DNA from: Candidatus Poribacteria bacterium
GTDB taxonomy: Bacteria > Poribacteria > WGA-4E > WGA-3G
Length of the DNA: 64,000 bases
Reading direction: 5' to 3'
Assembly (NCBI GenBank): GCA_965242965.1
Contig: OZ251518.1
Location: forward strand, 2,816,001 to 2,880,000
The notes under the pieces were generated by a model. It had not been told where the DNA came from and searched no databases. It worked only from the letters and a program-made list of their open reading frames with translations. This document shows, piece after piece, positions 3,825 to 64,000 of this stretch. Positions within the stretch are counted from its first letter, which is position 1; each line of letters starts with the position of its first letter. Both the position numbers and the translations under genes were made by a program.

Positions 3825-4646
3825 TGAGAGTGTTTCATATTTCAATACGTTCGGTAGGAGAGACTTCCTAGTCCCAATTTCTTCCGGTAGGAGAGACCTC
3901 CTGGTCTCGATGTGCCCGTAGCGCGGGGGCCTGTCCCCCACATTGTCCATCGTCAAGCGGTGGCGTTTTAGGTCCGTAGGACCTACATGTCTATAGAAAA
4001 ACGTATCCGTCCTTAGGATTCTTCGCAGACGCGCCGGCTATAGACATTCAGGTCCTACGGACCTGAAGAGAACAAGAGACGTTTTTTCCGTAGTGAGAAC
4101 GATGGCGAGGGAAACCCTCTCGCCTGCGCGGGTGGCATCCGAGGGCCCTCGCCCTACGGTGAGGGGGGGCGTTTTTTTCGCAGCGCGGGGGCCTGTCCCC
4201 CGCAAACTCCATCGTCACGATGTGTGTTTCCGCCTCTGTAGTTTGTGATCGCCTGATCACAAACAGGTCAAGATCAGGCGATCTTGACCTACAGAGGGGA
4301 GGGAGTCTGGGGTACGCGAAACGCTGGCGAGGGACAGGCCCTCGCCCTACGGTAACGCACGCCGTTTTTTCGGACGCATCGTTTTAGGTGCTTTAGCACC
4401 TACATGTCTATAGCAGCATGTGTCGTCCCGTTTTCAAGGGCCTTTAGGTCCTTAATAAAACACGCGCGGACCTGTCGAAATCTATTAAGGACCTAAAGGA
4501 CCTTAGAGCTCTTCGGTTGCCAAGTGCTATAGACATTAAGGTCCTACGGACCTAAGAGACATCGAGACCAGAGGTCTTTCCTATAGGAACATCGCTTGCA
4601 TCGAGACTGGAAGGGCTCTCTGGCACGGATTTATGAAACACCCTCA
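3825..4646. mobile_element. TIR-bounded composite REP cassette (MITE-like)
   Basis: Left end TGAGAGTGTTTCATA, right end TTTATGAAACACCCTCA; interior made of hairpin modules A, B, C, D and E; no target duplication. Confidence 0.75.
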
Positions 4647-4706
4647 ACTACATAGGGAACCTCTCTGAATTTTCATCGGTTATCAATTCAGGAAAACCGC
4701 GAATTT

Positions 4707-4735
4707 TTGACAAACACAGCGAAATGTGTTAAACT
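4707..4735 (+). promoter_or_regulatory. Sigma-70 promoter
   Basis: TTGACA-N17-TAAACT with an extended TG. Confidence 0.6.
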
Positions 4736-4780
4736 GCATCTCAAAACGCAAGCACAATCTGCATAAGATACCCAAAACCG

Positions 4781-6076
4781 ATGCGCTATCCAAAACGCCT
4801 CACCTCATCGCGAAGAAGACCGAAACGCCAGCGGTGCCGCACCTGCCGCTCCGATAACGGGAAACGCATCTGTCCCGCGCTCAACGGGATGCTTATCTGT
4901 CCAGAATGCTGCCGCACCAAACGCGCCAAGATTCCAGGTTGCGACGAAAGATGCCAATACTACTCGCCGCTCATCCTGAAAAGCAGGATGCGTGAAACTC
5001 CCGAATTCCCGATACATCGATGTCTTGTCAGTCGCTCGCGGGACACCGGCATGCTCATCGTTGTCGGCACGCGGAAGCGGCCCGATGGCAACCTGAAAGC
5101 GATGTTTATCTTGCTCGATCTTTGGAAAAAGGGCATCCGCGACTGCTTTTTTGACGCGAACCTCTCCGAAAAGCAGTTTGAGCGCGTCGCGCAAAAAATC
5201 GGGAAAAGCCAGAACCTCATGGCACCGCCAGATCCAGACGAAACGGATGAACCCGATGGCGAAATAGACGTTCGCCTCCCGAAACATACCCTCGTCATTG
5301 AGGCGGATACGGCGATACATAGCGATAAAGGCGTGAGAATCGTTCAGCACGACGAGGCATCCGGTGGACAAGCGATTGACAGTCTGCCCGGCGCGCGGGC
5401 TATCCACGAAATTTATATCCCGAAAACCGGGAAATGGTATGTCTGGCTGCGTGTCCTGTTTGAATACAGCAAAGATTCCTACTGGATCGGCATGGATGAC
5501 GCAACGCCGCACCCCTGGAACAGCGAAGGCGGAACGGGGGCAATCAAAATTTATGCCGAACCGGACGATACATCCAAATGGGGACGCTGGCTTTGGGATT
5601 CCGGCGTAGACAACGCGCACGGCATCAGCCCCTGCTTTTTTGAGGTGAAGCGGACAGGATACTATCAACTCTGGTCAAAGGGGAGAGAGGCCGGGTCGCG
5701 CTTGGATCAGATTTTGTTGACGCGCTCGCGGGATTTCAATCCGCAGACCGAGACAGAAGGACAACCGCTGCCAACGATGCTCGCGCAGCACCCTTATGAA
5801 CCCATCGCACTGCACGAATGCCAAAAACTCATTCGGCACGCTGTTGACATCGCAACCGCCGCGAAGACAGAGTTACCGTGGGAATTCAAATATTGGCTGC
5901 AAGATATGTGGGGCGACATCAGGGAATTTCCGGAAACGGAAGGCTCCCTCTACAAATGCCCCAAGTGTGGTGCAGAACTGCCGCAGCAGGCAGTCGAACT
6001 TATGATTCAGCATGCGCAATCCGATGACATTCAATTTTACATCTTATGCCGAAAGTGCGGCGGCGAATTCGATTAA
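4781..6076 (+). CDS. Hypothetical protein: Cys-rich N-terminal zinc finger, inserted carbohydrate-binding-like jelly-roll domain, C-terminal zinc ribbon
   Basis: CRTC..CP..CPECC..C..C at the N-terminus; VIEAD...WYVWLR...REAGSRLDQILLT in the middle; CPKC/CRKC at the C-terminus. Confidence 0.65.
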   Translation: MRYPKRLTSSRRRPKRQRCRTCRSDNGKRICPALNGMLICPECCRTKRAKIPGCDERCQYYSPLILKSRMRETPEFPIHRCLVSRSRDTGMLIVVGTRKRPDGNLKAMFILLDLWKKGIRDCFFDANLSEKQFERVAQKIGKSQNLMAPPDPDETDEPDGEIDVRLPKHTLVIEADTAIHSDKGVRIVQHDEASGGQAIDSLPGARAIHEIYIPKTGKWYVWLRVLFEYSKDSYWIGMDDATPHPWNSEGGTGAIKIYAEPDDTSKWGRWLWDSGVDNAHGISPCFFEVKRTGYYQLWSKGREAGSRLDQILLTRSRDFNPQTETEGQPLPTMLAQHPYEPIALHECQKLIRHAVDIATAAKTELPWEFKYWLQDMWGDIREFPETEGSLYKCPKCGAELPQQAVELMIQHAQSDDIQFYILCRKCGGEFD

Positions 6077-6128
6077 TTTCGTTGTTCGCAAGGCGTTGTT
6101 CAGCAATAATGGCGAGAACGACGTTGTC

Positions 6129-8309
6129 TTGCCAGGCCGCAGAGACGTTGTCTCTGCTTACGTTTCTGCTTTAAGGAAAACATCCTCGCTGATAGCGACG
6201 CTCTACCTTCTGTTATTTGCCTCGGTTTGCATCGCCGCGCCGCCGAACCCGTATCGCTTTTTTAACGTAGACCCGGGGACAGGCGAATTCGTTGCCAAAT
6301 CGCCGCAAAGCACGGCACAATTTCTGGAGGCATTAGATGGATGTTGCCTCGCGAGAGAGCAAAGCGTCCTGCAACCCGATGGCATCGAATATGTGCTTGC
6401 ACTCAAAGTCGATTTCGTTGACATGCCGGGACGCAGGAGCGGCGCGGAATTCAATCAATACCTATTTGCGCCTACCGGCGTTTCCCTGAAAACCTACTAT
6501 CGTGAAAATTCTTACGGGCAAATGGATATCCAGCCGGGACCGGCGGGCGGCGTTCTGCCTGCAGGAAACGAGTGGGTGCGTGCCAAGCATCCGATGTCCT
6601 ATTACGGCGCGGGGCCCGGGCAGTTTAACCTCACACGCTATCGGGAACTCATCCGAGAGGCATGTCAGGCAGTGGATGCCAACGTCGATTTCTCGCAATA
6701 TGACCGGAACGGGGACGGTATCGTCGATCACGTCTTCCTTATTCACGCTGGAAATGACCAGGCAACCTCTGGTGTAGCCGATGACCTCTGGTCTAACCTC
6801 ACCCCGAACGTGAACCTCGTGCTTGATGGTGTGCTGATTGACGCTGCCGTTGTCGTCGGGGAAGAGCCCGATTTTGCGAAACCGCATTTAGGCATCTATT
6901 TCCACGAGTTTTTCCACGACTTCGGCGCGCCCGATGTTTACGGGTTCAACTGGCCCGATGCCCGCGACCACAAGTGGGGACTGATGGGGGCTTACGGGCC
7001 CTATCAGGGCCCCGAATCCGCCGGCACCGCAAGTGGGAATGGGTTGGCACCGAGTCATATCATGGGTTATCTCAAGTGGGATTTTGACGCGCGCCCAGAA
7101 AATGGCCGCCTCGGTTGGATCGAACCGGTGACGATTACGCAGAATGGACACCTCACTGTTCCGAGTTTTGAACTCGGGCCAGAAACCGATAAGGTTTTCA
7201 AAATTGACATTCCATCTAATACTGATGGCTCGCGAGGGACAGGCACTCGCGCTACAGGAAGTAGTCGGGAATTCTTCTTGATAGAAAACCGCTACAAAGC
7301 CTCCGGCGCGATGTATGATACCCATCTGCCGGAATCCGGCATCTTGATTTGGCATATTGATGAAACAGAGGTGCGTCCCCTCGGCAGTTACGATGCCTCC
7401 CAACAGATTTGGCTGGAAGATCCGTCAGACCCGCAGCACATCGGGCTCGCCGGCGGTGAGTTGGACTTTATTGACATAGACACGATTACCGACGGCGCGG
7501 CTTACTCCGCTGACGATGGGCAAACCGCCTTTACATCCGGCACTTTGCCCAACAGCAACGCCAACGATGGCACGGTGACAGGCATCTCCATTACCAATAT
7601 CGGCCCCGAAGGATTTGATATTCCCCTGCAAATCTGGTTTGGCGACAGATCAGAACCGAATGACACACTCGCAACCGCTTTTCCAATCCGATATGAGGAG
7701 CTTTACGAATCTTTCCTGCTTGATGTAGACGATACGCGCGATGTCTATCAACTTGAGGTGTTCAGAGGTGTCACGATTCAGGTGATGTTGATGGGGATTT
7801 CGCCTGAACGTGAGTATCGCCTATTCTTTGTCACAGGAACAGATGAAACGCCGCTCGGCACGGTGCGCCAGGTCCCGACAGGCTTGCAACTCCTCTATCA
7901 ACCGGAGACGACAGGCACGTTTTACCTCGTCGTTGAATCTGATGACGGTTTTCGGGGTGCGGATGGCTACCGTTTGCAGGTGGTGCAAGTGGTGTCAGAA
8001 AGTTTCACGTTCGCGGAGACGCGGGTGTATCCCAATCCAATGCGCGTCGGCGATGCACCGATGAAGTTTGATTATCAGTTGGCGGCTTCACAAACCGCGG
8101 AGACTGTCACGCTTGAAATTTTCACGTCGACTGGAAACAAAATCTACGACGAAGTGCATCGGAACGTCTTTGTGCCGGGGACGTTCGCGTGGCATGGTGT
8201 GAACAGCGCAGGCGCGCCGATTGCCCCCGGTATCTACATTTACCGTCTTTCTGCCACGCAATCCGATGTGAACGTGCAGGAAATTGGAAGGTTGAGCGTG
8301 AAGAAATAA
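6129..8309 (+). CDS. Secreted M6 family (immune inhibitor A-like) zinc metalloprotease with PPC-like and FlgD-Ig-like C-terminal domains (start uncertain)
   Basis: Signal peptide; SLKTYYRENSYG; VDFSQYDRNGDGIVD; HAG; HEFFHDFGAPDVY (HExxH); EFFLIENR; GILIWHID; YPNP...WHG...GIYIYRL. Confidence 0.85.
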   Translation: MPGRRDVVSAYVSALRKTSSLIATLYLLLFASVCIAAPPNPYRFFNVDPGTGEFVAKSPQSTAQFLEALDGCCLAREQSVLQPDGIEYVLALKVDFVDMPGRRSGAEFNQYLFAPTGVSLKTYYRENSYGQMDIQPGPAGGVLPAGNEWVRAKHPMSYYGAGPGQFNLTRYRELIREACQAVDANVDFSQYDRNGDGIVDHVFLIHAGNDQATSGVADDLWSNLTPNVNLVLDGVLIDAAVVVGEEPDFAKPHLGIYFHEFFHDFGAPDVYGFNWPDARDHKWGLMGAYGPYQGPESAGTASGNGLAPSHIMGYLKWDFDARPENGRLGWIEPVTITQNGHLTVPSFELGPETDKVFKIDIPSNTDGSRGTGTRATGSSREFFLIENRYKASGAMYDTHLPESGILIWHIDETEVRPLGSYDASQQIWLEDPSDPQHIGLAGGELDFIDIDTITDGAAYSADDGQTAFTSGTLPNSNANDGTVTGISITNIGPEGFDIPLQIWFGDRSEPNDTLATAFPIRYEELYESFLLDVDDTRDVYQLEVFRGVTIQVMLMGISPEREYRLFFVTGTDETPLGTVRQVPTGLQLLYQPETTGTFYLVVESDDGFRGADGYRLQVVQVVSESFTFAETRVYPNPMRVGDAPMKFDYQLAASQTAETVTLEIFTSTGNKIYDEVHRNVFVPGTFAWHGVNSAGAPIAPGIYIYRLSATQSDVNVQEIGRLSVKK

Positions 8310-8311
8310 AA

Positions 8312-8612
8312 TGAGGGTGTTTCATAAATCGTTCAACGTCGCGGGGGAAACCCGCTCGGATGCGCGTGTGGCATCCGAGGGGCCCCGCGCTACGGTTGTC
8401 GAGGCCGCCTCCCTTCACCGTAGGGCGAGGGCCTGTCCCTCGCCATGCGTCTTGCTGTCAGACTGCATCCTCCCTGTAGTTCAGGATCGCCTGATCCTGA
8501 ACTGTTTGTGATCAGGCGATCACAAACTACAGAGGTGGGCCCAATGCCTGCCGGTATTCGCCCGCCTTCCAAGGCGGGATAAATACCGAAACAGAATTAT
8601 GAAACACCCTGA
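8312..8612. mobile_element. TIR-bounded composite REP cassette with 7-bp target duplication AATAAAA
   Basis: TGAGGGTGTTTCATAA...TTATGAAACACCCTGA, flanked by AATAAAA at 8305-8311 and 8613-8619. Confidence 0.9.
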
Positions 8613-8721
8613 AATAAAATTTTGTTGATTAAAAAATTGGATTATGATATGCTGTATTTTAGAATGAAGAGGTGGGCAAACGTTGTCCGCACGAAACATA
8701 ACCAAGGAGGCACTAGTATCA

Positions 8722-13155: not shown

Positions 13156-13235
13156 TTTCGGAATGTCCCTCCCGAGCGGTAGAAAGGTATGCAAGCCTGT
13201 CTATCGCTTGCACACAAGTTTTTCTTTCGTAAGAA

Positions 13236-13501
13236 GGCGAGGGACAGGCCCTCGCCCTACGTTCTTTTACAAGGTCTAGGCACGGCGAGGGACAGGCCCT
13301 CGCCCTACGGGAACCCGCGGCGTTTTTTCCACCGTAGCGCGGGGGCCTGTCCCCCGCGATCGTTGGGGCCCTCTGTAGTTCAAGATCGCCTGATCTTGAC
13401 CCGTTCGGGAGCAGGCGCTCCCGAACTACGGTCTCGCTTCATCGTAGCGCGGGGGCCTGTCCCCCGCGCTTGTTACATACCGAAACGGCGTTATGAAACA
13501 C
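13236..13501. repeat. REP cluster (A, A, B, D doublet, B) ending in a partial TIR
   Basis: Two copies of ggcgagggacaggccctcgccctac, further modules, then TTATGAAACAC abutting a stop codon. Confidence 0.8.
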
Positions 13502-20466: not shown

Positions 20467-20496
20467 ATTCCCGACATGTAGCGCGGATGCCCGACG

Positions 20497-44646: not shown

Positions 44647-44650
44647 TGAA

Positions 44651-47344: not shown

Positions 47345-47349
47345 CTTAG

Positions 47350-49044: not shown

Positions 49045-49098
49045 AATGTTTCTCCTTCCCTACTGGGTTGAGGTTGCGTCTGTCCTAATCCACTTAGG

Positions 49099-49368: not shown

Positions 49369-49403
49369 ATTAGATCTGGACAGTTTTGCGATGCCAAGAC
49401 AGG

Positions 49404-50713: not shown

Positions 50714-50742
50714 TTATACCACATTTTTCAACCGAATGCAAA
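50714..50742 (-). promoter_or_regulatory. Sigma-70 promoter followed by a ~370 nt leader
   Basis: TTGCAT-N17-TATAAT with extended TG. Confidence 0.6.
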
Positions 50743-50888
50743 TCTTTTTTTCTCATGTTTGCACTGACAAAAGAGGGCGGACTTTCCTCCCCAGACCCGT
50801 ATGGGGTTTCCAGTCCGTAAATTTAGATGAAGATGGACACACGTATCCACAAGACCGCGGGTGGCCGTGAAATACGATGGCACAATCT

Positions 50889-51629: not shown

Positions 51630-51663
51630 GTCGTTCTCCTTTCAGATTGGGGCGGCCCCTGTA

Positions 51664-52518: not shown

Positions 52519-52775
52519 TTTTTCTCTCCTTTGACACCTTAAGGGTGCCTTGATTTTCTTCTCGCACGCCGGATTCCTTTCTGTCTCGCGTGTTTTGAGG
52601 TGAGCATACTTGCATCGAGACCAGGAGGTCTCTCCTACCGGCATGCACTTGGTAACAAAGCGTGGAGGTGAGCATGCCCCCCTGCCGAGCTGTATATCCT
52701 GTGAGTGTGCTGTCTTTCCTTGAGAAGGCAGCAGTCACACGGGACAGACCGGCACGCTTTTCTATAAACTATTGT

Positions 52776-52791
52776 AGCAAGTTCCGTGCCA
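52776..52791 (-). promoter_or_regulatory. Sigma-54 (-24/-12) promoter
   Basis: TGGCACGGAACTTGCT matches TGGCACG-N4-TTGCW exactly. Confidence 0.85.
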
Positions 52792-52834
52792 AAACCGACA
52801 TATCGCTTAGATACGGGCGCCTTGCCATTTGCGC

Positions 52835-52893
52835 ACTGGGACAAAATGACACTATTGATACCTTTTTGCCCATAACTGGGTAAAAATGACCTA
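52835..52893. promoter_or_regulatory. Candidate upstream activator sequences
   Basis: ACTGGGACAAAATGAC and ACTGGGTAAAAATGAC 40 bp apart, with an inverted-like copy between them. Confidence 0.6.
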
Positions 52894-52953
52894 GTGCCAA
52901 CTCAGCATCGCGCACCGTTTCGCCGCGCCGCGTGGCTCAGCAGAAAACTTACT

Positions 52954-53305
52954 TGAGGGTGTTTCATAAATTTATCCCCCTTGGGAGGCGAGCGAATACC
53001 GATAGAAAAGCGAGGGCGTGCATCGGGCCCACCTCTGTAGTTCGGGAGCGCCCGCTCCCGAACGGTCAAGATCGCTTGGCAAACATGCCAGAACTTCAGA
53101 CGATCTTGCCCTACAGGGGTGATGCAGTCTGACAGCCAAACGCATGGTGAGGGAAACCCGCTCGGATGCGCGGGTGGCATCCGAGGGCCCTCGCCCTACG
53201 GGGAAGGGGACTGTTTTTTACCGTAGCGCGGGGGCCTGTCCCCCGCGATCGCAGCATGGCGAGGGGGTTTCACCGCAACGTTGAGTGATTTATGAAACAC
53301 CCTCA
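52954..53305. mobile_element. TIR-bounded core REP cassette (352 bp)
   Basis: TGAGGGTGTTTCATAAAT...ATTTATGAAACACCCTCA; its end supplies the TGA stop of the neighbouring gene. Confidence 0.85.
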
Positions 53306-55315
53306 ATTAAATGCCCGGATAACCTTCACTAACAATCTTTGTCTGAATTCAATAGCGTTCGGATCTCCGAGGATGATGAAAAAGTCGGTGCCGGCATAAC
53401 CGGAACGCCGGAGTGCGAAATAGATGTTCACCCCTTCCGCTTGCCATATCAGCCGACTGCCAAGGCTTAACGCCGGGCTGAAGTCATACGTCAGTGTTAA
53501 AATCTGTTGATACCGCTGCTCAAAATGCCACTGGATTTGGGTGGTAAAGCCCGCCGTGAACCCGTAAGCGCGGAGATTGAGATTTCCGCTGATGCGATGA
53601 AGCCGTTCACCAGCCTGCTCTCCACCTGCATAATTGATACTGACATTGTTAAACCGGTCTGAAGTCCGGATGCCCAAACCGATTGTGAAAACGCTATCGG
53701 TGAATTCTTCAAATCGGCCACCGTTCCAATGGACAGAAAGGGAGTAATCGCTGTGCGTCAAAAGGCTCGCGTATGCCGAAACGCTCCGCCGGAAAACCTC
53801 CCCTTCGTCAGTGTTCGATGCTTCGGACAGGACAGAGAGAAGTGCATTGCGTAGAAATCCTTCGCGCCATTCGTTACGGAGCCATCCACCGAGACTTGCG
53901 CCGCGATACCCGGTAAACGGATGATAGCCGAGATGATTGACGAAATCCGCGGCGGTAAAAAAGGCGGAAAGGTAGGCAAACCCCACCCCGCCGTTGTAAC
54001 TGAAAGCGGCATATCCCGAACTGCCATCGGATTCGCCTGCCCAACTTTGTGCAAAGTTTCCTTGTAGAGAAAACTTCCCCTGGCGCACGTTCCCCGAGAA
54101 ATAGCCAACGTTGTTTGATGACACTTCTCGCTGGTTGTATGACAGCAACGCCGCGCTGATAGTGGATGTAGCCGAAAACGACTGGGACGCGCGGAGAATC
54201 ACGTTCTGGTTATTTCGATGATAGGTGCCTAATGTCCCCACGGATGTGTTTTTACCGATTTTCCCGAAGAGGTTCAGCCCGCCATCCATGTCTACTATCC
54301 GCCGCGAATGGAAATAACTACCGAGACGATAGACATTGCCCCCTTCCAAAAAGAAGGGCCGCCGGTCTGACACGTAGCGTTCACCGTAGGAGAAGTCTAT
54401 CCCTTCCACAGCCTGCTCAAGGTTCTCAAAATCGGGGTTGGCAGTGCCGATGAGCCGGAGCTGCGGTGTTACTTCAAAGCGAAGATTGCCGCCGGCACGC
54501 GCCGTGTATGTCCGTTCTTCTGTCTCGCTGATGCCGCCGATGAGATACGGCAAGAACTTCACCTCCCGTTTGCGCGGCGGCGGCAGCACGTCTATCCAAT
54601 GTCCATCGTTTTCACGGAACTCCTGTAGCCCTAGGTTGCACCACCACGAACGTTCGCCGGTGCGCTGTTGCAACCTGTCAACGTTAATCCCCATCCGAAT
54701 AGGCTTCGTTGTATTCGGATAATCCAACATCTGCCAGGGGATTTCCATTTCAACAACCCATCCATCTGCTACGATTTGCGCGGCGACGTTCCAAAGTCCG
54801 ATCCACTCGCTTTTCTCAGCGCGCCCGGTGGCGAGGTGTGCATATTTCGTGCCGAGGGGATTCGCCATGAAGAAGTTCCTATCGCCGAATTGGTGCGTAT
54901 GGAACGCATCAATGCTGAACGACACCCAGTCTTCGTCGCGGATGCGCGCCTGGTCCTTCGTCTGGCGTGCCACGATTTTATCAGGCATCTCGTCAGAGAG
55001 ATGGAGCCCGACGTAGATGGCTTTGTCCGTGTAAACGAGCCGGAAGACGGACTGATTTCTCGCTGGTTTTTCGGTGCGTTCATCGGTGAAACCCACGCCT
55101 CGCGGTGCATCTTGCCAACAGGTATCGTCAAGAATCCCATCTATCATCGGTGGCTGTGCGGTTTTGTGTGCAGGAAGTTGTTTTTGAACCGTTTGTTCTC
55201 TATCGGGACGCGAGAGCCCACCTACCGGTTCGGGACTAGAACCCTCTCCTACAGCTGCAATGGCGGTGAGGTGGCATAGAGAAAGCCCGATGAGCAGGGG
55301 CATCATGAATCTCAT
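53303..55315 (-). CDS. CBM9-like sugar-binding domain plus DUF5916-like outer-membrane beta-barrel protein
   Basis: Signal peptide; PMIDGILDD.CW, WVVEMEIPW, NPDF..., RRPFFLEG, FHSRRI; alternating beta-strand C-terminus; ATGA overlap with the activator gene. Confidence 0.75.
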   Translation of the reverse strand: MRFMMPLLIGLSLCHLTAIAAVGEGSSPEPVGGLSRPDREQTVQKQLPAHKTAQPPMIDGILDDTCWQDAPRGVGFTDERTEKPARNQSVFRLVYTDKAIYVGLHLSDEMPDKIVARQTKDQARIRDEDWVSFSIDAFHTHQFGDRNFFMANPLGTKYAHLATGRAEKSEWIGLWNVAAQIVADGWVVEMEIPWQMLDYPNTTKPIRMGINVDRLQQRTGERSWWCNLGLQEFRENDGHWIDVLPPPRKREVKFLPYLIGGISETEERTYTARAGGNLRFEVTPQLRLIGTANPDFENLEQAVEGIDFSYGERYVSDRRPFFLEGGNVYRLGSYFHSRRIVDMDGGLNLFGKIGKNTSVGTLGTYHRNNQNVILRASQSFSATSTISAALLSYNQREVSSNNVGYFSGNVRQGKFSLQGNFAQSWAGESDGSSGYAAFSYNGGVGFAYLSAFFTAADFVNHLGYHPFTGYRGASLGGWLRNEWREGFLRNALLSVLSEASNTDEGEVFRRSVSAYASLLTHSDYSLSVHWNGGRFEEFTDSVFTIGLGIRTSDRFNNVSINYAGGEQAGERLHRISGNLNLRAYGFTAGFTTQIQWHFEQRYQQILTLTYDFSPALSLGSRLIWQAEGVNIYFALRRSGYAGTDFFIILGDPNAIEFRQRLLVKVIRAFN

Positions 55316-56388
55316 GCATCTTCCTCCTGAAACATTCTCAATTTGCTGCGCAAAGTCGGACGGCTCACGTCTAAAACCGCGGCGGTTTGCGCCTGATTGC
55401 CATCCAGCCGCGCGAGGGTTTCTAAAATGTATATCTTCTCTACCTGCTTCAAGGTTAACCCCACCGGGATGGCCACGGTAGGTTGGTTTTGCGATGTAAG
55501 CATTGACTGGCCCGGGTCAGGTGCATAAAGTTTTTTCGGTAAATGCTCCGGTAAGATAAGGTTCCCTTCCGAAAGGATGAGTGCGTAAGTGACGCTCTTT
55601 TTGAGTTCTCGGATATTTCCGGGCCAGGCGTAATCTTGAAGGAGCTGGAACGTTTGTGCGGCGAATCTGCCTACCGGTTCATCGGTAGTCGGATGGGGCG
55701 CGTGCGCCTTTAACCGTTCGCTTAGTGGTGGCAGCCGCATAGAAAACCGCGTGAGTTGCGGCGGCTCTTGTGAGAAGTGTTCCACGAGCTCACGGATATC
55801 CTCTTTCCGTTCGCGCAGCGGCGGCAGCGAAATAGAAAACCCCTCAAGTCGATGATAGAGGTCCTCCCGAAATTCGCCTTCGTGAACGGCTTGTTCTAAG
55901 TTGCGGTTGGTTGCGGCGAGAATTCGGACATCCACCGGAATCGGTGCTTTGCCGCCGAGGCGTTCCACCTCGCCTTCCTCCAGCGCGCGCAGCAACTTCG
56001 GTTGGAGTGACAGGGGCAAATCGCCGATTTCATCAAGGAACAGTGTCCCCTTGTCGGCGCGTTCAAACTTCCCAATCCGCTGCTGCTTCGCATCGGTAAA
56101 GGCACCCTGTTCATACCCAAACAGTTCGCTCTCAACGAGGCTCTCCTGAAGCGTCGTGCAGTTGACGACGACGAGCGGCCCCGTTGCGCGGGGGCTGTTG
56201 GTATGTAGGGCGCGTGCTACTAACTCCTTGCCTGTCCCTGTTTCACCGTAAATCATCACGGGGACATCGTGTCTTGCTAGCAACTCAATCTTTTTTAGGA
56301 CTTCAAGAATCTGTGGGCTGCTGCCGATGATGGCACTGTAATCTCCATCTAATGAATCTCTTGTCCTCTCGGCTGTTTTGCGCTGCAT
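55312..56388 (-). CDS. Sigma-54-dependent activator (AAA+ plus Fis HTH) with no N-terminal sensor domain
   Basis: GETGTGKE, ESELFGYEQGAFTDA, LFLDEI, FREDLYHRL, WPGNIREL, GNQAQTAAVL. Confidence 0.92.
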   Translation of the reverse strand: MQRKTAERTRDSLDGDYSAIIGSSPQILEVLKKIELLARHDVPVMIYGETGTGKELVARALHTNSPRATGPLVVVNCTTLQESLVESELFGYEQGAFTDAKQQRIGKFERADKGTLFLDEIGDLPLSLQPKLLRALEEGEVERLGGKAPIPVDVRILAATNRNLEQAVHEGEFREDLYHRLEGFSISLPPLRERKEDIRELVEHFSQEPPQLTRFSMRLPPLSERLKAHAPHPTTDEPVGRFAAQTFQLLQDYAWPGNIRELKKSVTYALILSEGNLILPEHLPKKLYAPDPGQSMLTSQNQPTVAIPVGLTLKQVEKIYILETLARLDGNQAQTAAVLDVSRPTLRSKLRMFQEEDA

Positions 56389-56433
56389 GTTATCGTCCTT
56401 TCATGCCTAACGGCACTGTTATATCAAATTACG

Positions 56434-57005
56434 TCAGGGTGTTTCATAAATCGCTCAATGTTGCGGTGAAACCCGCTCGGATGCGCGTGTGGCATCCGAG
56501 GGCCCCGCGCTACGGTAAAAAAACGCTTTCCCTTCACGTAGGGCGAGGGCCTGTCCCTCGCCATGCTTGATTGCCGCTTTCACCGTAGGGCGAGGGCCTG
56601 TCCCTCGCCATGCACCGGGCTGAGCCGCAAACATCCGGGGTCTCTGGGCTGCGGACGTTTTCCACAGCGGTTGAGAGATCGCGGGGGACAGGCCCCCGCG
56701 CTACGGTAACAAATAAGAAATCGTCACCGTTTACCGTAGGGCGAGGGCCCTCGCATGCCACACGCGCATGCGAGAGGGTTTCCCTCGCCATGCCGAAGGT
56801 CTGTAAGACCTTAATGTCTATAGCATCCTGCACCGCAGCGCACCCTAAGGTCCTTTAGGTCCTTAATGTGCCTTGACTCCCTTGGCTGCCGCTTGATTAA
56901 GGTCCTAGCGGACCTTGAAAACAGTGGCATGTCTGTTTTTCTATAGACATTTAGGTCTTAAAAGACCTAAAGAGGCATCCATAACGGATTTATGAAACAC
57001 CCTCA
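56434..57005. mobile_element. TIR-bounded composite REP cassette (572 bp) with 7-bp target duplication AATTACG
   Basis: TCAGGGTGTTTCATAAATC...GATTTATGAAACACCCTCA, flanked by AATTACG at 56427-56433 and 57006-57012. Confidence 0.9.
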
Positions 57006-57064
57006 AATTACGTTGAACGAACCCGCCGGCAGACTCCTGGCATTTGCATCTGGCCTGTTTCGTC

Positions 57065-59185
57065 TCAATCCAAACCGGTTGCAACCAGAGTGATGCGCAC
57101 CAACTCTTCGGTTTGCAATTCATCGTTGTAGGAAAGCCCGAAGATAACTTGGGCATCCGATGCGGCATTCTGGATAACCTGCATCGCGCTATCCAATTCC
57201 GCCATCATGAAATCCTGTGGCGCGACAACTTCTACCAGCAGACCGGAGGCTTTGGCGAGATTCGCGCCTTCGAGAAGCGGCGAAGAAACGGCGGATTCAG
57301 CCGCGATGCGCCCGCGCTCCTCTCCCACCGCCTGTCCGATGCCCATCGCCGTCCGCCCTGGAACCCGTAAGACAGATTCAACATCGGCGAAGCCAACGCT
57401 AACCTCATGCTCGGCATTTACGATGTTCCCGGTGATGAGTTGAACGCCTCGGATGAGGAGTTCATCGCTAACGCGGAAAACCTCCTGAGTCCGTTTGACA
57501 CTTGTGCCAGAACTTTCGGCAATCGCGTCCCCTTCGTCAATCAGGTGTTGGTTGCCGACAACGATGAGGGAATCTGCAGCGGTTCGGAGTGCTTTCACGC
57601 CGTTTTCGGCTTGCGCCGCGCGCTGCTCTCCCTCAGCATGGAAAGGCAAGGTTACCATCGCAACGGTTAATACGCCGTATCTGCGAGCGAGCGATGCGAT
57701 ACGCGGTGCTGCAACGGTGCCGGTGCCGCCGCCCATGCCAGCAACGATGATAACCATGTCCGCATCCGAGACGAGGGTTTCCAATGCCACGCTATCTTCC
57801 TCCGCTGCCTCTCGTCCAACTTCCGAATTGCCTCTGGCACCAACCCCTTTGGTGGCTTTCTGCCCAATCTGGATTGGTGTGATATCGTCGTAGGCATCCA
57901 AGGCACCGCTGTCGGTGTCAACCGCATAAAATTCAAGTCCGGTTAACCCGGCTTCACGCATGCGATTGACAGCCTTTCCGCCGCCGCCTCCGACACCGAT
58001 AATCTTCACGGTGACAGGTGTCGCCTTCAATTTCATCGGCATGATGAGATAAGTCTGTCCCGATTCACCTACCGGTTCCGCAACTGCCGGATTTAATTCC
58101 CCAGAGCACTTCAGTTGGATACTTTCGGTATCCAGATGCGAGAGTGCCTCCATCAACAACCGCGCATCAAACCCAATCCGCAGGTTTTTCGTGCAAGAAT
58201 CGACAGAGACGGTTTCGTGTGCTCTGCCGAGCCCCGGGGTCTTCGCCGAAAGCCGAATGTTCTTTTCCGGCTCGTTGATTTCCAAGCAGATGGCACAGCC
58301 TTTTTTCAGTTCCGATAACAGGGAGATGCGGCGCACCGCCTGCAGCATCGTCTCGCGCTTGAATACGGTGCGGACTTGCATCGCCCCGGGTTTCGGGATA
58401 ATCTTCTCGTAGTCCGGGTATTCATCATCTATCAAGCGCGCTGTCAGCGTGGTGCGCTCATCGGCGATGCTCAGACACCGCGTCGGGTTAAACGGTTCGC
58501 TGCTCTGGAAGAACGAAACGTTCACCGAGTCCGCATCGGCGAAAATTTGGGGGATGGCTTGCACCGCCTTGAGCGGCACAATGAACCCTGTCACCCCTTC
58601 CGGCGGTGTCAGCGCATCACAGCGCACCAGCGCGAGCTGCCGGCCATCAGTTGCAACTACCTCCGTCCTATCGCCAAGGAAGTTAAAATAGAGCCCGCAC
58701 AGCATTTTCCGCTTTTCTTCCTCGGTGGATGCTGCGAATGCGGTTTTGTGGATAACCTCACGCAGCGTCTGGAGGTGGATGTCCAAAGGCTCTCCCTCAA
58801 ACACGGGGAGCTGTGGGAACTCTGTCGCCGGTAGCCCCACAATGATGAACGTTGGGATGAACGTTGAGGTATCAACGCTGTTCTCACACGTCAACTTCAC
58901 TTGGTTGTTCGCCGGTGTGGTGAGGCGGAGCTCCGAGTCTGGCAGCACCTTGACGATGTCCGTCAGTTTCTTAGCGGGGACGGCAATCGCGCCTTCTTCC
59001 AGAATAGTCCCATCCACCTTAGTGCGAATGCCTACCTCCATGTCCGTGGCGGAGCACTCAATTTTCCCTTCATCCGCCTTGATAAGGACGTTTGAAAGCA
59101 TTGATGAAGGACTGTGCCCATTTGCAACACCCTGCACTATCTGCAGCGAGTGCAAAAGGGGTTCTTTTTGAAACGTTAATTCCAT
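57065..59185 (-). CDS. dnaN-ftsZ: DNA polymerase III beta clamp - FtsZ fusion protein
   Basis: Residues 1 to ~387 are DnaN (SATDMEVG, VATDGRQLAL, ARLIDDEYPDY, IGFDA, YLIMPMKL). The rest is an FtsZ core (IIGVGGGGG, AGMGGGTGT, PFHAEG, FADV, LVATG). No internal stop; AGGAG RBS. Confidence 0.92.
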   Translation of the reverse strand: MELTFQKEPLLHSLQIVQGVANGHSPSSMLSNVLIKADEGKIECSATDMEVGIRTKVDGTILEEGAIAVPAKKLTDIVKVLPDSELRLTTPANNQVKLTCENSVDTSTFIPTFIIVGLPATEFPQLPVFEGEPLDIHLQTLREVIHKTAFAASTEEEKRKMLCGLYFNFLGDRTEVVATDGRQLALVRCDALTPPEGVTGFIVPLKAVQAIPQIFADADSVNVSFFQSSEPFNPTRCLSIADERTTLTARLIDDEYPDYEKIIPKPGAMQVRTVFKRETMLQAVRRISLLSELKKGCAICLEINEPEKNIRLSAKTPGLGRAHETVSVDSCTKNLRIGFDARLLMEALSHLDTESIQLKCSGELNPAVAEPVGESGQTYLIMPMKLKATPVTVKIIGVGGGGGKAVNRMREAGLTGLEFYAVDTDSGALDAYDDITPIQIGQKATKGVGARGNSEVGREAAEEDSVALETLVSDADMVIIVAGMGGGTGTVAAPRIASLARRYGVLTVAMVTLPFHAEGEQRAAQAENGVKALRTAADSLIVVGNQHLIDEGDAIAESSGTSVKRTQEVFRVSDELLIRGVQLITGNIVNAEHEVSVGFADVESVLRVPGRTAMGIGQAVGEERGRIAAESAVSSPLLEGANLAKASGLLVEVVAPQDFMMAELDSAMQVIQNAASDAQVIFGLSYNDELQTEELVRITLVATGLD

Positions 59186-59280
59186 TTTGCAAATCTCCTA
59201 TCTCTCTCAAGAGTTATCAACAGAACAATTCTGCTGAGTCCGGCTCAGCAGATGTGCTGTTAGGTTTTACTGAATAGTGT

Positions 59281-59296
59281 TGCAATTTCCGTGCCA
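59281..59296 (-). promoter_or_regulatory. Sigma-54 (-24/-12) promoter of dnaN-ftsZ
   Basis: TGGCACGGAAATTGCA, exact consensus; 5' UTR hairpin CTGCTGAG-N5-CTCAGCAG at 59231-59251. Confidence 0.85.
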
Positions 59297-59409
59297 ACTT
59301 CAAAACCTGCGTAGTTACGGGAGTTTCGCAATTGCGTAACGTAAAATTTTTGTCCCTAGTGGAAAGAATATTGCCATAGCGGCGTTCATTGTGCGCTGTC
59401 CCGTTCTTG

Positions 59410-59970
59410 CCGTAGGAGAGCCCTCCTGGTCTCGATGAGGTTCGTATCGGGACAAGGATGTCCTTCCTACCGGAATCCCTCGGGCCCACCTCTGTAGTTC
59501 GGGAGCGCCCGCTCCCGAACGGGTTAAGCGCGCGGCCGCCTCATCTACCGTAGCGCGGGGGCCTGTCCCCCGCGAGCGTTCGACCCGCGCGAAAAACACA
59601 CGCAAACCAACGCCGTTTCCCCAACCGACGCACGGCGAGGGACAGGCCCTCGCCCTACGGGGAAACGGAAACGGCCTTGCATACCGTAGCGCGGGGGCCT
59701 GTCCCCCGCGAGCGTTCACGTGCCCAGGACTGTAGTTCGGGAGCGCCTGCTCCCGAACGGTTCAGGAGCAGGTGCTCCTGAACTACAGGAGGGATGAGCG
59801 CGCGGCCGCCTCATCTACCGTAGCGCGGGGGCCTGTCCCCCGCGAGCGTTGGGGTGCGCGGGCATGAACGATGGCGAGGGACAGGCCCTCGCCCTACGGT
59901 GAAGTACCGTTTTTTATCGCAGCGCGGGAGCCTGTCACCGCAACGTTGAGCGAGTTATGAAACACCCTAA
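59410..59970. mobile_element. Composite REP cassette, right TIR only
   Basis: C, C-variant, D, B and A modules, then TTATGAAACACCCTAA followed by AATAAAA. Confidence 0.75.
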
Positions 59971-60053
59971 AATAAAATGCCTCTGGACAAATTCCGCGTT
60001 TGATGGTATCGTATCATGAAGACACGAAAATGAGAAAGGAGAAATGGCAAACC

Positions 60054-62108
60054 GTGCAAACACTCGCAATTCAGGACAAAACCTACACCAATTCAATAGG
60101 CATGCAGTTCGTGAGAATTGAGCCCGGCAGTTTTCTCATGGGCTCCGAGAACGCGCAACTCCCCGATGAATTAACCGATGGCAAGGCGCACCTCCGCGAT
60201 GGCGATTGGGACGAACATCCCGTGCATCAGGTGACACTCAGCACGCCGTTCTACATGGGCATCTTTCAGGTGACGAACGCGCAATATGAAGCGTTTGACC
60301 CGGGGCACCGGCACCTACGCGGGCTTCCCAATATAGGTTCGCAAACTGCGCCTGACATCGGTTTTTCACGAGAAGATGACGAGGCTGTCGTGTTTGTCAA
60401 CTGGCACGATGCTGTCCGCTTCTGCGAATGGCTCTCCAAACGCGAAGGGAAACCTTACCGGCTTCCGACAGAGGCGGAATGGGAATACGCCTGTCGCGCC
60501 GGCACAACGACGCACTTTTCTACCGGCGATACGCTTCCCGATGCCTTCCATAAAAACGTCGGGGAGAGTTGGTATCCCGATGCCGATAGGAGCCGCGGTG
60601 TTGAAGAAGTGGTGCCGCTGCACGTCGGGCAAACCCCACCGAATCCCTGGGGCCTCTACGATATGCACGGCAATGTAGAGGAATGGTGCCACGATTGGTA
60701 TGGTGCTTATGAAGCGCAGCCGCAGGAAAATCCCGTCGGCAGGGAGGATGGGCTCTATCGTGTCACGCGCGGGGGCAGTCATTCCACGCTGCTTTGCTAT
60801 CTCCGTTCGGCGAATCGGATGGGCGCGGTGCCAGAAGATAAGCATTGGTATATCGGGTTTCGCGTCGTCTGTGGCGCGATGCCGGACACGCCACCGCGCC
60901 GCGTGCCGAAAGTGGCGTTATGGGGACGGAATGTCAATCAAGAGGCACGTGTGGAAGCCGCGCCGCCGGTAGAAACCCCTTTCTTCGCCGAACCGCTCAC
61001 TTATGTGAAAATCCCTGCAGGTTCAAACGGCCCGCTTTTTTCAGCGCACAATCACGTGCCTTCAATCGTGGCGTGCCCGAACGGCGATATGTTCACAGCG
61101 TGGTATTCATGCGTGACAGAACGGGGACGCGAATTGACAGTGGCGGCGAGCCGGTTGCGCCACGGACAAAACGAATGGGAACCAGCAGAACCGTTTTGGG
61201 GAGCCCTCGACAGGAACAATCACGCCACGGCACTCTGGTGCAATGAAAATGGGCGCATCTATCATTTCAACGGGCTATCCGCAGCAGCGACGTGGGGGCC
61301 ACTAGCGTTAGTCATGCGCTATTCCGACGACAACAGCGCGACGTGGACGCGCCCGCGGCTCATCTCACCGGAACATCAGTTGCGGCAGATGCCGATTACG
61401 TCCGTTTTCCGCAGACAAGACAACTCCATCCTGCTCGCATGTGATGCTGTCAGCGGGGGCAACGGCGGCACCGCCATCTGGCTCAGCGAGGACGATGGTG
61501 AAACGTGGCGTGACCCGGGCGCAGGACAGCCTATCCCCGAATTTGCCGCAGGCAAGTGCGGCGCATGGATAGCCGGCATCCACGCCGCTGTCGTTGAATT
61601 GTCAGATGGCCGATTAATGGCTTACGGACGCGGCGATACGATTGGCGGCCGGATGCCGAAGAGTGTCTCTGCCGATGGCGGCAAGACGTGGCGTTATAGC
61701 GCGAGCCCTTTCCCGCCGCTCTCTGGGGGACAACGGTGCGTGCTACTCAGATTGAAGGAAGGCCCGGTCTTCCTCGCCTCTTTTACGGGAGAGCGGGGGA
61801 ACCCGGCGGCGATGCCGATTGTCGATGCATCGGGAAATGAACGTCCGGTGAAAGGGCTATTTGGCGCGCTATCTTTTGACGATGGCGAAACCTGGCCGCA
61901 CATCCGGCTCATCAGCGACGACGGGCCAGACAGGGGACTTGAAACGATGGATGGCAGGCCCTTTACGATGGGATTTAGCAGTGCTGAACTGGGCGGCTAC
62001 CTCGCCGTGTGCCAAGGCAAGGACGGCACTATTCACCTTATCAGCAGCCGACAACATTATCGGTTTAATCTGCCGTGGTTGCAGGAGTTGCCGCCAGCAG
62101 TCGTGTGA
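60054..62108 (+). CDS. FGE-sulfatase (SUMF1-fold) domain fused to a BNR/sialidase-like propeller (start 60030 or 60054)
   Basis: YRLPTEAEWEYACRAG, NPWGLYDMHGNVEEW, RGGS, IGFRV; Asp-boxes SDDNSATW, SEDDGETW, SADGGKTW, SFDDGETW. Confidence 0.88.
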   Translation: MQTLAIQDKTYTNSIGMQFVRIEPGSFLMGSENAQLPDELTDGKAHLRDGDWDEHPVHQVTLSTPFYMGIFQVTNAQYEAFDPGHRHLRGLPNIGSQTAPDIGFSREDDEAVVFVNWHDAVRFCEWLSKREGKPYRLPTEAEWEYACRAGTTTHFSTGDTLPDAFHKNVGESWYPDADRSRGVEEVVPLHVGQTPPNPWGLYDMHGNVEEWCHDWYGAYEAQPQENPVGREDGLYRVTRGGSHSTLLCYLRSANRMGAVPEDKHWYIGFRVVCGAMPDTPPRRVPKVALWGRNVNQEARVEAAPPVETPFFAEPLTYVKIPAGSNGPLFSAHNHVPSIVACPNGDMFTAWYSCVTERGRELTVAASRLRHGQNEWEPAEPFWGALDRNNHATALWCNENGRIYHFNGLSAAATWGPLALVMRYSDDNSATWTRPRLISPEHQLRQMPITSVFRRQDNSILLACDAVSGGNGGTAIWLSEDDGETWRDPGAGQPIPEFAAGKCGAWIAGIHAAVVELSDGRLMAYGRGDTIGGRMPKSVSADGGKTWRYSASPFPPLSGGQRCVLLRLKEGPVFLASFTGERGNPAAMPIVDASGNERPVKGLFGALSFDDGETWPHIRLISDDGPDRGLETMDGRPFTMGFSSAELGGYLAVCQGKDGTIHLISSRQHYRFNLPWLQELPPAVV

Positions 62109-62175
62109 TGCGCACGCGCGCTTGCACAAAAATCTGAAACGTGGTATCCTATGTGCATCAATCAAGGAGGAAAAA

Positions 62176-63270
62176 ATGAGAACGTTTGGGACGCGGGGCC
62201 CCGTGACACCTGAGCGGCACTACGTTGTCCCGCGCACAAGGGAGCTCGCCGATTTTATCTATCGCCTTAAAGACGGCCGTTACGTTGTCATCTTCGCACC
62301 GAGGCAGACAGGCAAGACAACGTTCTTCCGAACGGCACTAAAGAAGTTGACACTTGAAGAGCCCAGTTATTGTCCAATTGAGCTCAATTTTCAGGTTTAC
62401 AAAAACGTCGCGCCGGCTGCGTTCTATGCCCACCTCTGCCAAAACATGCGGGAGGAAATCGAGAAAGTTTTCCAAAAACGTCAAGAGGCTCTGCCGGACC
62501 CGTTACGCCGTTATTTAGAGGCGGTAAAACTGGCAGACCATCTGGCTATGTTAGATTTCTTTAAACGGCTTGGAGTTCTGCTCGCTCCTCGGCGGTTTGT
62601 CATTATCATTGACGAATTTGACGGCATCCCCTCTGCGATAGTGAGCGATTTTCTGTATTCGCTCCGCCAAACGTATCATATTGCCGAGGAGTCTCGCTGT
62701 CCCTTCAGCGTGGGCATCGTCGGGGTAAAGAATCTGACGCAACTCAACTACGATAGGAGTATCTCGCCGTTCAACATCCAAGATGAGTTCCACTTGCCGA
62801 ACTTCACCCTTGCCCAAGTGACAGAACTCCTTGGACAGTATACGGTGGAAGTCGGACAAACTTTTGCCGCCGAAGTCATTGAGACGCTATATCGGCAGAC
62901 AGCAGGACAGCCGTTCCTCGTCAACCGCCTCGCGCAGATACTCACCGAGGAGATGGACATTCCGAAAACGGAGCCGATTACCTTGGAGGACTTTGCCAAG
63001 GCTCACAAGGCGATTCTGGCGGAAGAGAACGTCAACTTTCACCATGTCACCACCAATATCCGCAAAGACTCGCGATTTGAGAGACTCCTGATGAAAGTTG
63101 CCACCTCTGAGCACGGTATCGACTTCAATCCCCACGATGAACTGATGCGGGAACTTCAAACCTACGGTGTCCTCACACGAGGGGCTGACGGGAAGTGTGA
63201 GATTGTCAACCCGATTTATCAGTATTGCATCATGCAGGCGTTCAAGCCTCCGATAAAGGGTGTTTCATAA
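62176..63270 (+). pseudogene. AAA-like (AAA_35-type) P-loop ATPase, probably 3'-truncated by a TIR cassette
   Basis: Promoter TTGCAC-N17-TATCCT at 62122-62150; AGGAGG RBS; APRQTGKTT, IIDEFD, SPFNI, GQPFLV; the stop TAA lies inside the TIR. Confidence 0.7.
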
Positions 63271-64000
63271 ATCGCTCAACGTCGCGGTGAAAAATGGGGA
63301 ATTGCCGTTAGGAGAGACCTCCTGGTCTCGATGTGCGTATCGGGACAAGGATGTCCCTCCTACCCGAAACGACGCACACCCGTAGGAGAGACCTCCTGGT
63401 CTCGATGCATTAGGTAGGAAAGCCCTCCCGGTCTTGATGCAATAGGGCGGCGCGCCTACCGAGGGCGCGGCGGCAGAAAGCCCCTTGAAAAAACGGTTCT
63501 TAGGTCCGTAGGCCCTTAATGTCTATAGCACGCACACCGCCAAGAACCCTAAGGTCCTTTAGGTCCTTAATAGATTTTGACACGCCGCGCGTGTTTTATT
63601 AAGGTGAGGGTGTTTCATAAATCTATCCCCCTTGGGGGCGGGCGAATGCCGAGCCCTCTGGCTCACCTCTGTAGTTCGGGATCGCCTGATCCCGAACAGG
63701 TCAAGATCAGGCGATCTTGACCTACAGGGGTGATGAACTCTGGCAGCAACACGCATGGCGAGGGACAGGCCCTCACCCTACGTGAAGGGGCGGCGTTTTT
63801 CCACCGTAGCGCGGGGACCTGTCCCCGCGACGTTGAACGATTTATGAAACATCCTCATTAAGGACCTAAAGGACCTTGAAAACGGCACGACACGTATTGC
63901 TATAGACATGTAGGTCCTAAAGGACCTAAAAACATAACTTGACGATGGATATCGCGGGGGACAGACAACCGTGCTACGGGAACATCGAGACCAGGAGGTC
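63255..64000. mobile_element. Composite REP cassette running off the window end
   Basis: AAAGGGTGTTTCATAAATCG followed by C-type, F-like, E and B modules. Confidence 0.75.
63605..63857. mobile_element. Core TIR cassette (253 bp) nested in an E module, with 6-bp target duplication TTAAGG
   Basis: TTAAGG-TGAGGGTGTTTCATAAATC...GATTTATGAAACATCCTCA-TTAAGG. Confidence 0.9.

Follow-up and report, generated by a model that had tools for sequence, protein, structure and literature searches.

In a 64,000-nucleotide stretch of a Candidatus Poribacteria genome (GenBank assembly GCA_965242965.1, contig OZ251518.1, positions 2,816,001 to 2,880,000; hereafter the window), we identified short units that share one kind of inverted end and enclose clusters of GTAG-tagged repetitive extragenic palindromes (REPs). 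These units are likely to be transposable elements of the miniature inverted-repeat type (MITEs) that arose from a ∼1.11-kb DDE insertion sequence (IS) of the Poribacteria and that carry their REP clusters as passengers. The evidence comprises the ends themselves, target duplications, a parent IS in related genomes, layouts conserved between copies, and one insertion that was reconstructed in silico.

Repeated ends and hairpin clusters in the window

A 17-nt end, AGGGTGTTTCATAAATC, matched the window 16 times at up to two mismatches, whereas none of 100 dinucleotide shuffles yielded a match (0 expected). The end motif described in an earlier note on this DNA, made from the sequence alone, is therefore real. 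Allowing up to four mismatches brought the number of ends to 19, gaining those at 3827 (plus strand), 20876 (minus strand), and 36238 (plus strand). The outermost bases were mostly TG...CA, with TC or GA now and then. Grouping the 19 ends gave 12 loci, seven with complete inward-facing pairs and five with single ends; the earlier note had counted about 14 loci, and its recurrent ends were confirmed but its count was not. Complete units spanned 253 to 822 bp, as that note had stated. They are short and noncoding, since the open reading frames (ORFs) that overlap them had no Pfam match.

In the same sequence, GTAG adjoining a stem of at least 7 bp occurred in 80 hairpins, compared with 0 to 7 (mean, ∼2) in 20 block shuffles. 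With their tag next to a hairpin, their high copy number, and their position outside genes, these sequences have the properties of GTAG REPs; no Rfam family attained its gathering score at any position in the window. Hairpin family A has the form GGCGAGGG...CCCTCGCC and family B the form CGCGGGGG...CCCCCGCG. Family C (GAGACC...GGTCTC) has a 6-bp stem and was hence mostly missed by the search for stems of at least 7 bp. Family D is a head-to-head doublet of two related hairpins, similar to a REPIN (REP doublet forming hairpins). A second inverted-repeat element of ∼185 bp lacks the GTAG tag; its outer ends read TTAGGTCC.TAGGACCT.AATGTCTATAGCA, and it also contains an inner inverted pair. The seven complete units are composed as follows.

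3825-4646, no strand assigned: long-form MITE, 822 bp, without target duplication; left end with three mismatches (the CATATTTC variant); interior of C hairpins, B, a short and a full second inverted-repeat element, A with a loop insert, B, D doublet, and A
8312-8612, minus strand: canonical short MITE, 301 bp, in inverted orientation between AAATAAAA copies
23998-24258, plus strand: 261-bp MITE with C-type hairpins inside, without target duplication
49099-49368, plus strand: canonical short MITE, 270 bp, the reference copy; flanks agree at only five of seven positions
52954-53305, plus strand: canonical MITE, 352 bp, with additional insertions in D2 and in the A loop
56434-57005, plus strand: 572-bp MITE of another subfamily, between AAATTACG copies; interior of B with a loop insert, A, A, B, A, and a second inverted-repeat element (56797-56971)
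63605-63857, plus strand: canonical short MITE, 253 bp, inside a copy of the second inverted-repeat element, with ATTAAGG on both sides

Insertions of this kind touch stop codons at 8304-8311, 53303-53305, and 63268-63270. The TAA stop of the ORF at 6012-8309 falls within the AAATAAAA duplication of the 301-bp unit, the terminal TCA of the 352-bp unit (53303-53305) is the TGA stop of a minus-strand ORF (53303-55315), and the ORF at 61861-63270 stops at a TAA inside the single end at 63257.

A DDE insertion sequence with the same ends in other Poribacteria

Scanning contigs with the 17-nt end returned at least 41 loci, of which at least 30 were labeled Candidatus Poribacteria and came from many metagenome-assembled genomes (MAGs). 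The other 11 listed loci were single matches in unrelated phyla, except for one (L005) that held a pair; because ∼70 chance 17-mer matches are estimated in 596 Gb, the single matches were treated as noise. In six Poribacteria loci among the matches listed (L013, L021, L024, L027, L035, and L038), facing ends lay 1,103 to 1,110 bp apart and delimited a full IS of 1,107 to 1,114 bp with one ORF of 332 to 353 aa between the ends. The autonomous element that the earlier note had proposed to search for thus exists in other Poribacteria, with the same ends.

The ORF between the ends in L027 (6733-7794) encodes 353 aa from its first GTG, and its relatives are mostly 332 aa long. It matched Pfam DDE_Tnp_1_3 with 27.4 bits (cutoff, 27; E = 4e-6). 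Among NCBIfam models, it scored 45.9 bits against IS982 (NF033520; E = 5e-12) and 22.5 bits against IS5 (NF033579; E = 7e-5), reaching neither the cutoff of 130 nor that of 140, respectively. The element has the ∼1-kb length, single ORF, and DDE_Tnp_1-type domain of the IS982 family. By these profile scores, we place it among the DDE insertion sequences belonging to the IS4/IS5/IS982 group; it comes closest to IS982, although the curated score keeps it outside that family. A guess in the earlier note at IS5/IS1182-like ends is to be corrected accordingly: IS982 was the nearest model and IS5 the second, and no IS1182 model appeared at E ≤ 0.01. The L027 transposase had 966 relatives at E ≤ 1e-5, the best 120 of which were all at least 72% identical. 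PF13612 was present in the precomputed Pfam annotation of 118 of these 120, and PF01609 additionally in some. The few named relatives among the best 120 were all called "hypothetical protein," two with the tag "[Candidatus Poribacteria bacterium]." The family is new, being unnamed in the sources that list these relatives. A plasmid collection gave a single weak transposase match, with 31% identity over half the length. Literature searches on insertion sequences or transposases of Poribacteria gave no paper with Poribacteria in its title, and none was found on IS982-related MITEs with target site duplication.

Shorter derivatives link this IS to the units in the window. The 685-bp unit in locus L006 is the IS with an internal deletion (positions 1 to 113 joined to 550 to 1113), a classical intermediate towards a MITE. 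Units in the window have 18 to 32 terminal bp in common with the IS at 90 to 100% identity, of which the right-end match covers 18 to 24 bp; the 261-bp unit at 23998-24258 retains 32 bp of the left end of the IS (90.6%) and 20 bp of the right. Since merely these terminal bases are shared, the window units are MITEs. In the window itself, neither a DDE nor a Y1 match emerged when Pfam was run on 41 long ORFs and on another 32 with a length of 90 aa or more, and the earlier statement that the window holds no transposase stood for all 73 ORFs scanned.

Several end matches in short-read MAGs lie at contig ends or within ∼220 bp of them and were therefore read as assembly breaks at a multicopy repeat. 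Near the IS copy in L035, a split but strong DDE_Tnp_1_3/DDE_Tnp_1 gene was present (1362-2355; E = 2.7e-45), and near that in L012, a fragment of an IS1595-type transposase (502-1017). The pair in L005 (147-305), from an uncultured bacterium with a G+C content of 0.62 that is not labeled Poribacteria, delimits a ∼155-bp unit with the same ends, one of them with three mismatches, and GTAG/CTAC-tagged sequence lies on either side of it.

Target duplications and a reconstructed insertion

For the analysis of flanking sequence, the element was read as T(G/C)AGGG...CCCT(C/G). The A that follows CCCT(C/G) also opens the duplicated word, so that duplications can be read as 6 to 7 or as 7 to 8 bp. 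Three units in the window lie between exact duplications: AAATAAAA (8 bp; 8304-8311 and 8612-8619), AAATTACG (8 bp; 56426-56433 and 57005-57012), and ATTAAGG (7 bp; 63598-63604 and 63857-63863). These are the three duplications reported in the earlier note, exact as claimed there and now reread as 8, 8, and 7 bp. With its palindromic AATT core, the target could be mistaken for an extension of the inverted repeat; yet AATTACG, AATAAAA, and TTAAGG are repeated in direct and not in inverted orientation, so that the duplications are real.

We then considered 17 complete units: the seven in the window, the six full IS copies, the L006 derivative, two units in L019 (from another species), and the one in L005. 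Exact duplications of 7 to 8 bp flanked 6 of the 17 (those at 8314, 56436, and 63607 in the window, the IS copies in L027 and L038, and an 865-bp unit in L019), that is, three of seven window MITEs, two of six full IS copies, and one L019 MITE. Equally good agreement was seen in only 2 of 272 flank pairs that were not partners. MITEs and parent IS therefore have a duplication length of 7 to 8 bp in common. The earlier note had deduced a DDE enzyme from the combination of ends and duplications, and that deduction is backed by the DDE IS of other Poribacteria, which agrees with the units in both its ends and the length of its duplications. The flanks of the units follow the consensus A-(A/T)-T-T-A-A-N on both sides (A/T-rich ANTTAAN sites). 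Because of this consensus, partial agreement at four to six of seven positions elsewhere may reflect target preference rather than a decayed duplication.

One insertion could be undone. The second inverted-repeat element has uninterrupted copies, a copy interrupted by the 253-bp unit, and short forms:

4384-4556, 36497-36680, and 56797-56971: second inverted-repeat element, uninterrupted copies
63497-63935, no strand assigned: second inverted-repeat element interrupted by a MITE, the host of unit 63605-63857
3969-4068 and 47075-47150: second inverted-repeat element, short forms

Deletion of 63605-63856 together with one ATTAAGG in silico left the junction TTTTATTAAGGACCTAAAGG, which is unbroken relative to the three uninterrupted copies. 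Since the deletion restores an intact copy of the host, it reveals a paralogous empty site, and the REP-filled 252-bp unit must have inserted whole, already holding its D doublet, A, and B hairpins when it arrived. The 865-bp unit in L019 (3325-4189), with its exact AGTTAAT duplication, points the same way. On both counts, the proposal in the earlier note that REP arrays hitchhike on a DDE-mobilized shell was supported insofar as the REP-filled units moved in one piece. When the 41 loci were compared with the window by blastn, repeats and WD40 repeats alone were shared, and no syntenic stretch offered an orthologous empty site. The second element itself is nested in long MITEs, is host to one MITE, and is also present in L019; no parent element or duplication was identified for it.

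Conserved layouts of the enclosed clusters

The canonical unit runs from end to end in a fixed order: end, TATCCCCCTTGG..GGGCGAATACCG, D doublet, A, a T-rich linker, B, ACGTTGAACG, and end. This layout aligned over its full length in five window copies and in a unit from another species (L019:6121-6385); the core layout described in the earlier note thus does recur. Two long units, the 822-bp one at 3825-4646 and the 865-bp one in L019, likewise have in common the CATATTTC variant of the left end, the right subterminal sequence, and the modules. Copies differ in three ways: by compensatory stem variants, by a ∼30-nt hairpin in the loop of A or B, and by nested second inverted-repeat elements. 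Because order and nonhairpin linkers are conserved, the units fall into a few stable subfamilies, two of them seen across species, and are not freely shuffled cargo. The earlier note had spoken of shuffled cargo, of hairpins swapped between copies, and of copies with different modules. Copies do vary, but shuffling was an overstatement given the conserved subfamilies; much of the apparent swapping is compensatory change within the same hairpins, and the second inverted-repeat element, which is not a REP, accounts for the long units.

The ∼30-nt hairpin, CTCGGATGC..GCATCCGAG, lies inside the loop of an A or B hairpin in some copies (8383-8415, 53150-53185, 56455-56500, 4105-4145, and 19505-19540 in the window and 6300-6350 in L019). 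It looks like a loop-targeted insertion or a conversion between REP variants.

Local insertions of this type, together with the extra pieces in 52954-53305, would also fit a different sequence of events, in which empty or near-empty MITEs came first and served as preferred landing sites for REPs that inserted one by one through RAYT (REP-associated tyrosine transposase) or another enzyme. Members of these REP families also abound beyond the units (63 of 80), and REP dimers "inserted within long palindromic sequences" are described in the relevant part of Di Nocera et al. 2013 (PMC3733652). We consider later arrival of the hairpins improbable, however. Order, orientation, and linkers are identical in five window copies and in another species, and independent insertions would not have rebuilt the same linkers. 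Moreover, the unit at 63605 carried the full set at its reconstructed empty site, and the 865-bp L019 unit, with all of its modules, has an exact duplication.

Alignment of 13 copies of the D doublet gave 21 predicted pairs, 8 of which showed compensatory changes, and the canonical unit folds as single-stranded DNA far better than its shuffles (z = −9.8). Such preserved pairing could instead mean that the units are now immobile relics, retained because their hairpins serve the host as terminators or mRNA stabilizers between genes. Over the D-A-B part, canonical copies are 72 to 89% alike, a terminator-like hairpin followed by a T run lies in the A-B linker (49283-49303), and the units lie at gene ends, two of them supplying or containing stop codons. 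Terminator-like sites in 44001-64000 were nevertheless not clearly enriched (33 versus 25.1 ± 5.3 in shuffles), and three window copies retain perfect duplications. We regard retention as relics as unlikely; it concerns the present state of the units and is compatible with the MITE origin proposed here.

Clusters and single ends outside the complete units

The seven complete units account for only 17 of the 80 GTAG hairpins. Away from any end, the D-A-B composite occurs as well, together with its nonhairpin linkers:

17166-17571, no strand assigned: two partial D-A-B clusters in opposite orientation, with linkers as in the MITEs, without IS ends
40768-41197, minus strand: two tandem D-A-B clusters (40848-41012 and 41036-41197) with a 182-bp period, without IS ends
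19423-19691, minus strand: A, B with a loop insert, A, and D doublet (composite, 19537-19691), without IS ends
13227-13483, no strand assigned: REP array A, A, B, D doublet, B (composite, 13289-13429), without IS ends

Composites thus exist and duplicate without ends, which makes the MITE one vehicle among others. D-A-B identity was 79% among copies inside units, 81% among those outside, and 77% between the two groups, and a tree of the composites left inside and outside copies intermingled, with 7 of 10 inner branches open and two changes needed for the "inside" label. Per kilobase, the window contained 1.25 GTAG hairpins and L019 contained 2.5, compared with 0 to 1 in other Poribacteria loci, whose hairpin families differ from those of the window. 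GTAG REPs thus seem to be widespread among the Poribacteria loci sampled, each lineage having families of its own.

Five loci have one end only:

20496-20892, minus strand: REP array C, A, B, A, D doublet, C, C with a single decayed end (20876-20892; four mismatches)
36236-36950, plus strand: start of a canonical MITE (end at 36238 with three mismatches, D doublet, A, B) that continues into a second inverted-repeat element (36497-36680) and then B, A, and C hairpins; right end not found
46967-47344, plus strand: intact right end (47326-47344, minus-strand match); interior of C, C, a short second inverted-repeat element, A, and C
59400-59970, plus strand: REP array C, D, B, A, B, D doublet, B, A, B that closes with an alpha-type end (59952-59968, minus-strand match; one mismatch); left end not found
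63255-63273, plus strand: single alpha-type end at 63257

Any partner of the 63257 end may be located past base 64000, and the end at 47326 seems, as judged by eye from the sequence, to have a decayed left partner near 46969-46990. Recombination, to which the earlier note attributed them, is a possible cause of unmatched flanks and single ends. Comparison of every end flank with every other, in direct and inverted orientation, gave nothing convincing in the way of swapped flanks. The one notable cross-match, AAATAAAA at 8314 and at 59968, was not counted as a sign of recombination, the target being of low complexity.

The end-free tandem duplication of D-A-B (40848-41197; 182-bp period), the single-ended state of 5 of 12 loci, and the missing duplication in four of seven complete units could also be accommodated if the ends were one more module of a mosaic similar to bacterial interspersed mosaic elements (BIMEs), spread by recombination, tandem duplication, or a single-strand enzyme (HUH/RAYT or TIRYT), with the DDE IS just having the sequence in common with it. 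Tyrosine transposase genes between long terminal inverted repeats are on record in the corresponding portion of PMC3733652. Against such a mosaic, six loci have a DDE transposase gene between these very ends, a deletion derivative exists, and 7- to 8-bp duplications at a common target motif, the mark of a staggered DDE cut, are found in IS and MITEs alike; no Y1 transposase was present among the 73 ORFs scanned in the window and the 100 scanned in the loci. We therefore judge the mosaic explanation very improbable.

Proposed mechanism

We propose that the transposase of the IS, supplied in trans, would bind the ∼19-bp ends, excise or copy the MITE, and integrate it into A/T-rich ANTTAAN sites by way of a 7- to 8-bp staggered cut; the mechanism is ordinary DDE transposition. 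In the REP-rich lineage of the window, the MITEs retain only 18 to 32 bp of the IS, and the space between the ends is taken up by a composite of REP or BIME type, consisting of the REPIN-like D doublet, the A hairpin, the T-rich linker, and the B hairpin. Other MITE subfamilies carry C hairpins and the second small inverted-repeat element. The composites traveled with the ends as one piece and, on this reading, were thereby spread as passengers by a DDE enzyme. Mobilization in trans, the way in which the cluster arrived between the ends, and any role of RAYT are what we infer here from the sequences compared. A wider reading, that in this REP-rich Poribacteria lineage whole REP or BIME clusters were captured between DDE-IS ends, copied to other places in the genome, and kept across species as MITE cargo, is possible but is put forward tentatively.

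GTAG REPs are thought to be mobilized by RAYT tyrosine transposases, according to Nunvar 2010 (PMC2817692) and PMC3733652. Neither the 73 window ORFs nor 100 ORFs of 110 to 330 aa from 31 loci contained a Y1_Tnp/RAYT domain; the latter scan covered 100 of 162 ORFs, far too small a sample to exclude RAYT in 5-Mb genomes. The second tier of the earlier note, REPs as substrates of RAYT enzymes, is accordingly putative here and draws on general knowledge of REPs.

Several observations weigh against the MITE origin or narrow what it can explain. An exact duplication is missing in four of the seven complete window units and in 7 of the 10 complete units of other loci. The IS982 and IS5 scores of the transposase lie far under the curated cutoffs (45.9 versus 130 and 22.5 versus 140 bits). 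The 64-kb window holds no transposase of the family, so that activity in this lineage may be past rather than present, and the 72 to 89% likeness of canonical copies indicates that they are old. With 63 of 80 hairpins outside complete units, the MITE cannot be the main spreader of REPs. Finally, the D-A-B tree gives no direction of transfer: MITEs may have captured the composites, or free composites may have lost their ends. Even with these points counted in, descent of the units from the Poribacteria IS, with REP clusters as passengers, remains the reading that we hold to be likely.

Other genes in the window

Several other genes in the window were noted for their domain content.

57065-59185, minus strand: 706-aa ORF comprising a full DnaN sliding clamp (three domains, aa 1 to 384) and FtsZ/tubulin GTPase and FtsZ_C domains (aa 393 to 706)
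480-3551, plus strand: 1,023-aa Eco57I/MmeI-type restriction-modification fusion
24337-25464, minus strand: 375-aa fusion of an N6/N4 DNA methylase with an Mrr-like nuclease domain
37014-40757, minus strand: 1,247-aa protein made up nearly entirely of WD40 repeats, the source of several direct-repeat families
20902-23853, minus strand: 983-aa protein with cytochrome-c-type domains (c554, MtrC/MtrF-like) and a TPR region

The same five domains as in the DnaN-FtsZ fusion were found in 13 protein clusters (687 to 710 aa; 60 to 100% identity), so the fusion is not an artifact. In relatives, the DnaN part or the FtsZ part is joined to sigma-70 regions 2 and 4.

Relation to known repeats and significance

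MITEs, REPs with their REPIN and BIME arrangements, and nested small repeats are each already known. Like the bacterial MITEs RUP, Correia/NEMIS, Nezha, and ERIC, as treated in the pertinent part of PMC3733652, the units described here are short and noncoding, have inverted ends of 15 to 30 bp that match a full IS, show target duplications, lie next to genes, and fold strongly. Unlike those MITEs, their interior is a GTAG REP cluster that is also free in the genome and not leftover IS sequence, several subfamilies exist per pair of ends, and a second inverted-repeat element is nested in them or hosts them.

The parent IS resembles IS982 and the IS4/IS5 DDE_Tnp_1 group in its length of ∼1.1 kb, its one ORF, its short inverted ends, and its DDE_Tnp_1_3 domain. 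IS982 elements make target duplications of 3 to 9 bp, and the 7 to 8 bp seen here fall within that range. IS982 ends start with AC; those of the Poribacteria IS start with TGAGGG instead, and its transposase differs in scoring 45.9 bits against a cutoff of 130.

As with the GTAG REPs, REPINs, and BIMEs portrayed in the portions of PMC2817692 and PMC3733652 that concern them, the tag stands by a G+C-rich hairpin, head-to-head doublets occur, the repeats are intergenic, and clusters have conserved spacers and compensatory stem variants. What differs is that part of the clusters lie between the ends of a DDE IS, with DDE-type duplications, and that no RAYT was present in the scanned ORFs. The closest precedent that we found is provided by GTAG-15 of Anabaena variabilis and CGTC-1 of Halothiobacillus neapolitanus, whose REP doublets are, in the section of PMC3733652 on these repeats, likewise regularly enclosed by long inverted sequences. 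That section treats the palindromes as insertion targets and gives no transposase, parent IS, or duplication for them, whereas the enclosing ends in the window are connected with both a DDE IS and duplications. What is new is that a REP enclosure is linked to a DDE IS, along with duplications and an insertion that could be reconstructed. A literature search on MITEs or REPs in Poribacteria found no work on small repeats.

REPs and MITEs are usually held to be separate classes of small repeats that depend on different enzymes. One reconstructed insertion and several exact duplications indicate that a REP cluster can ride inside a DDE-mobilized MITE, and the parent IS belongs to an unnamed family that is common in the Poribacteria, a phylum of uncultured sponge symbionts. 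The repeats occupy most of the intergenic regions inspected, give rise to stop codons or take their place, and probably interrupt assemblies made from short reads, and for these reasons they matter for the annotation and assembly of these genomes. If clusters are indeed captured and copied in this way, the DDE transposase would constitute a second, RAYT-independent route by which REPs spread, shell-borne and free clusters would exchange members, and the second inverted-repeat element would both nest in MITEs and host them.

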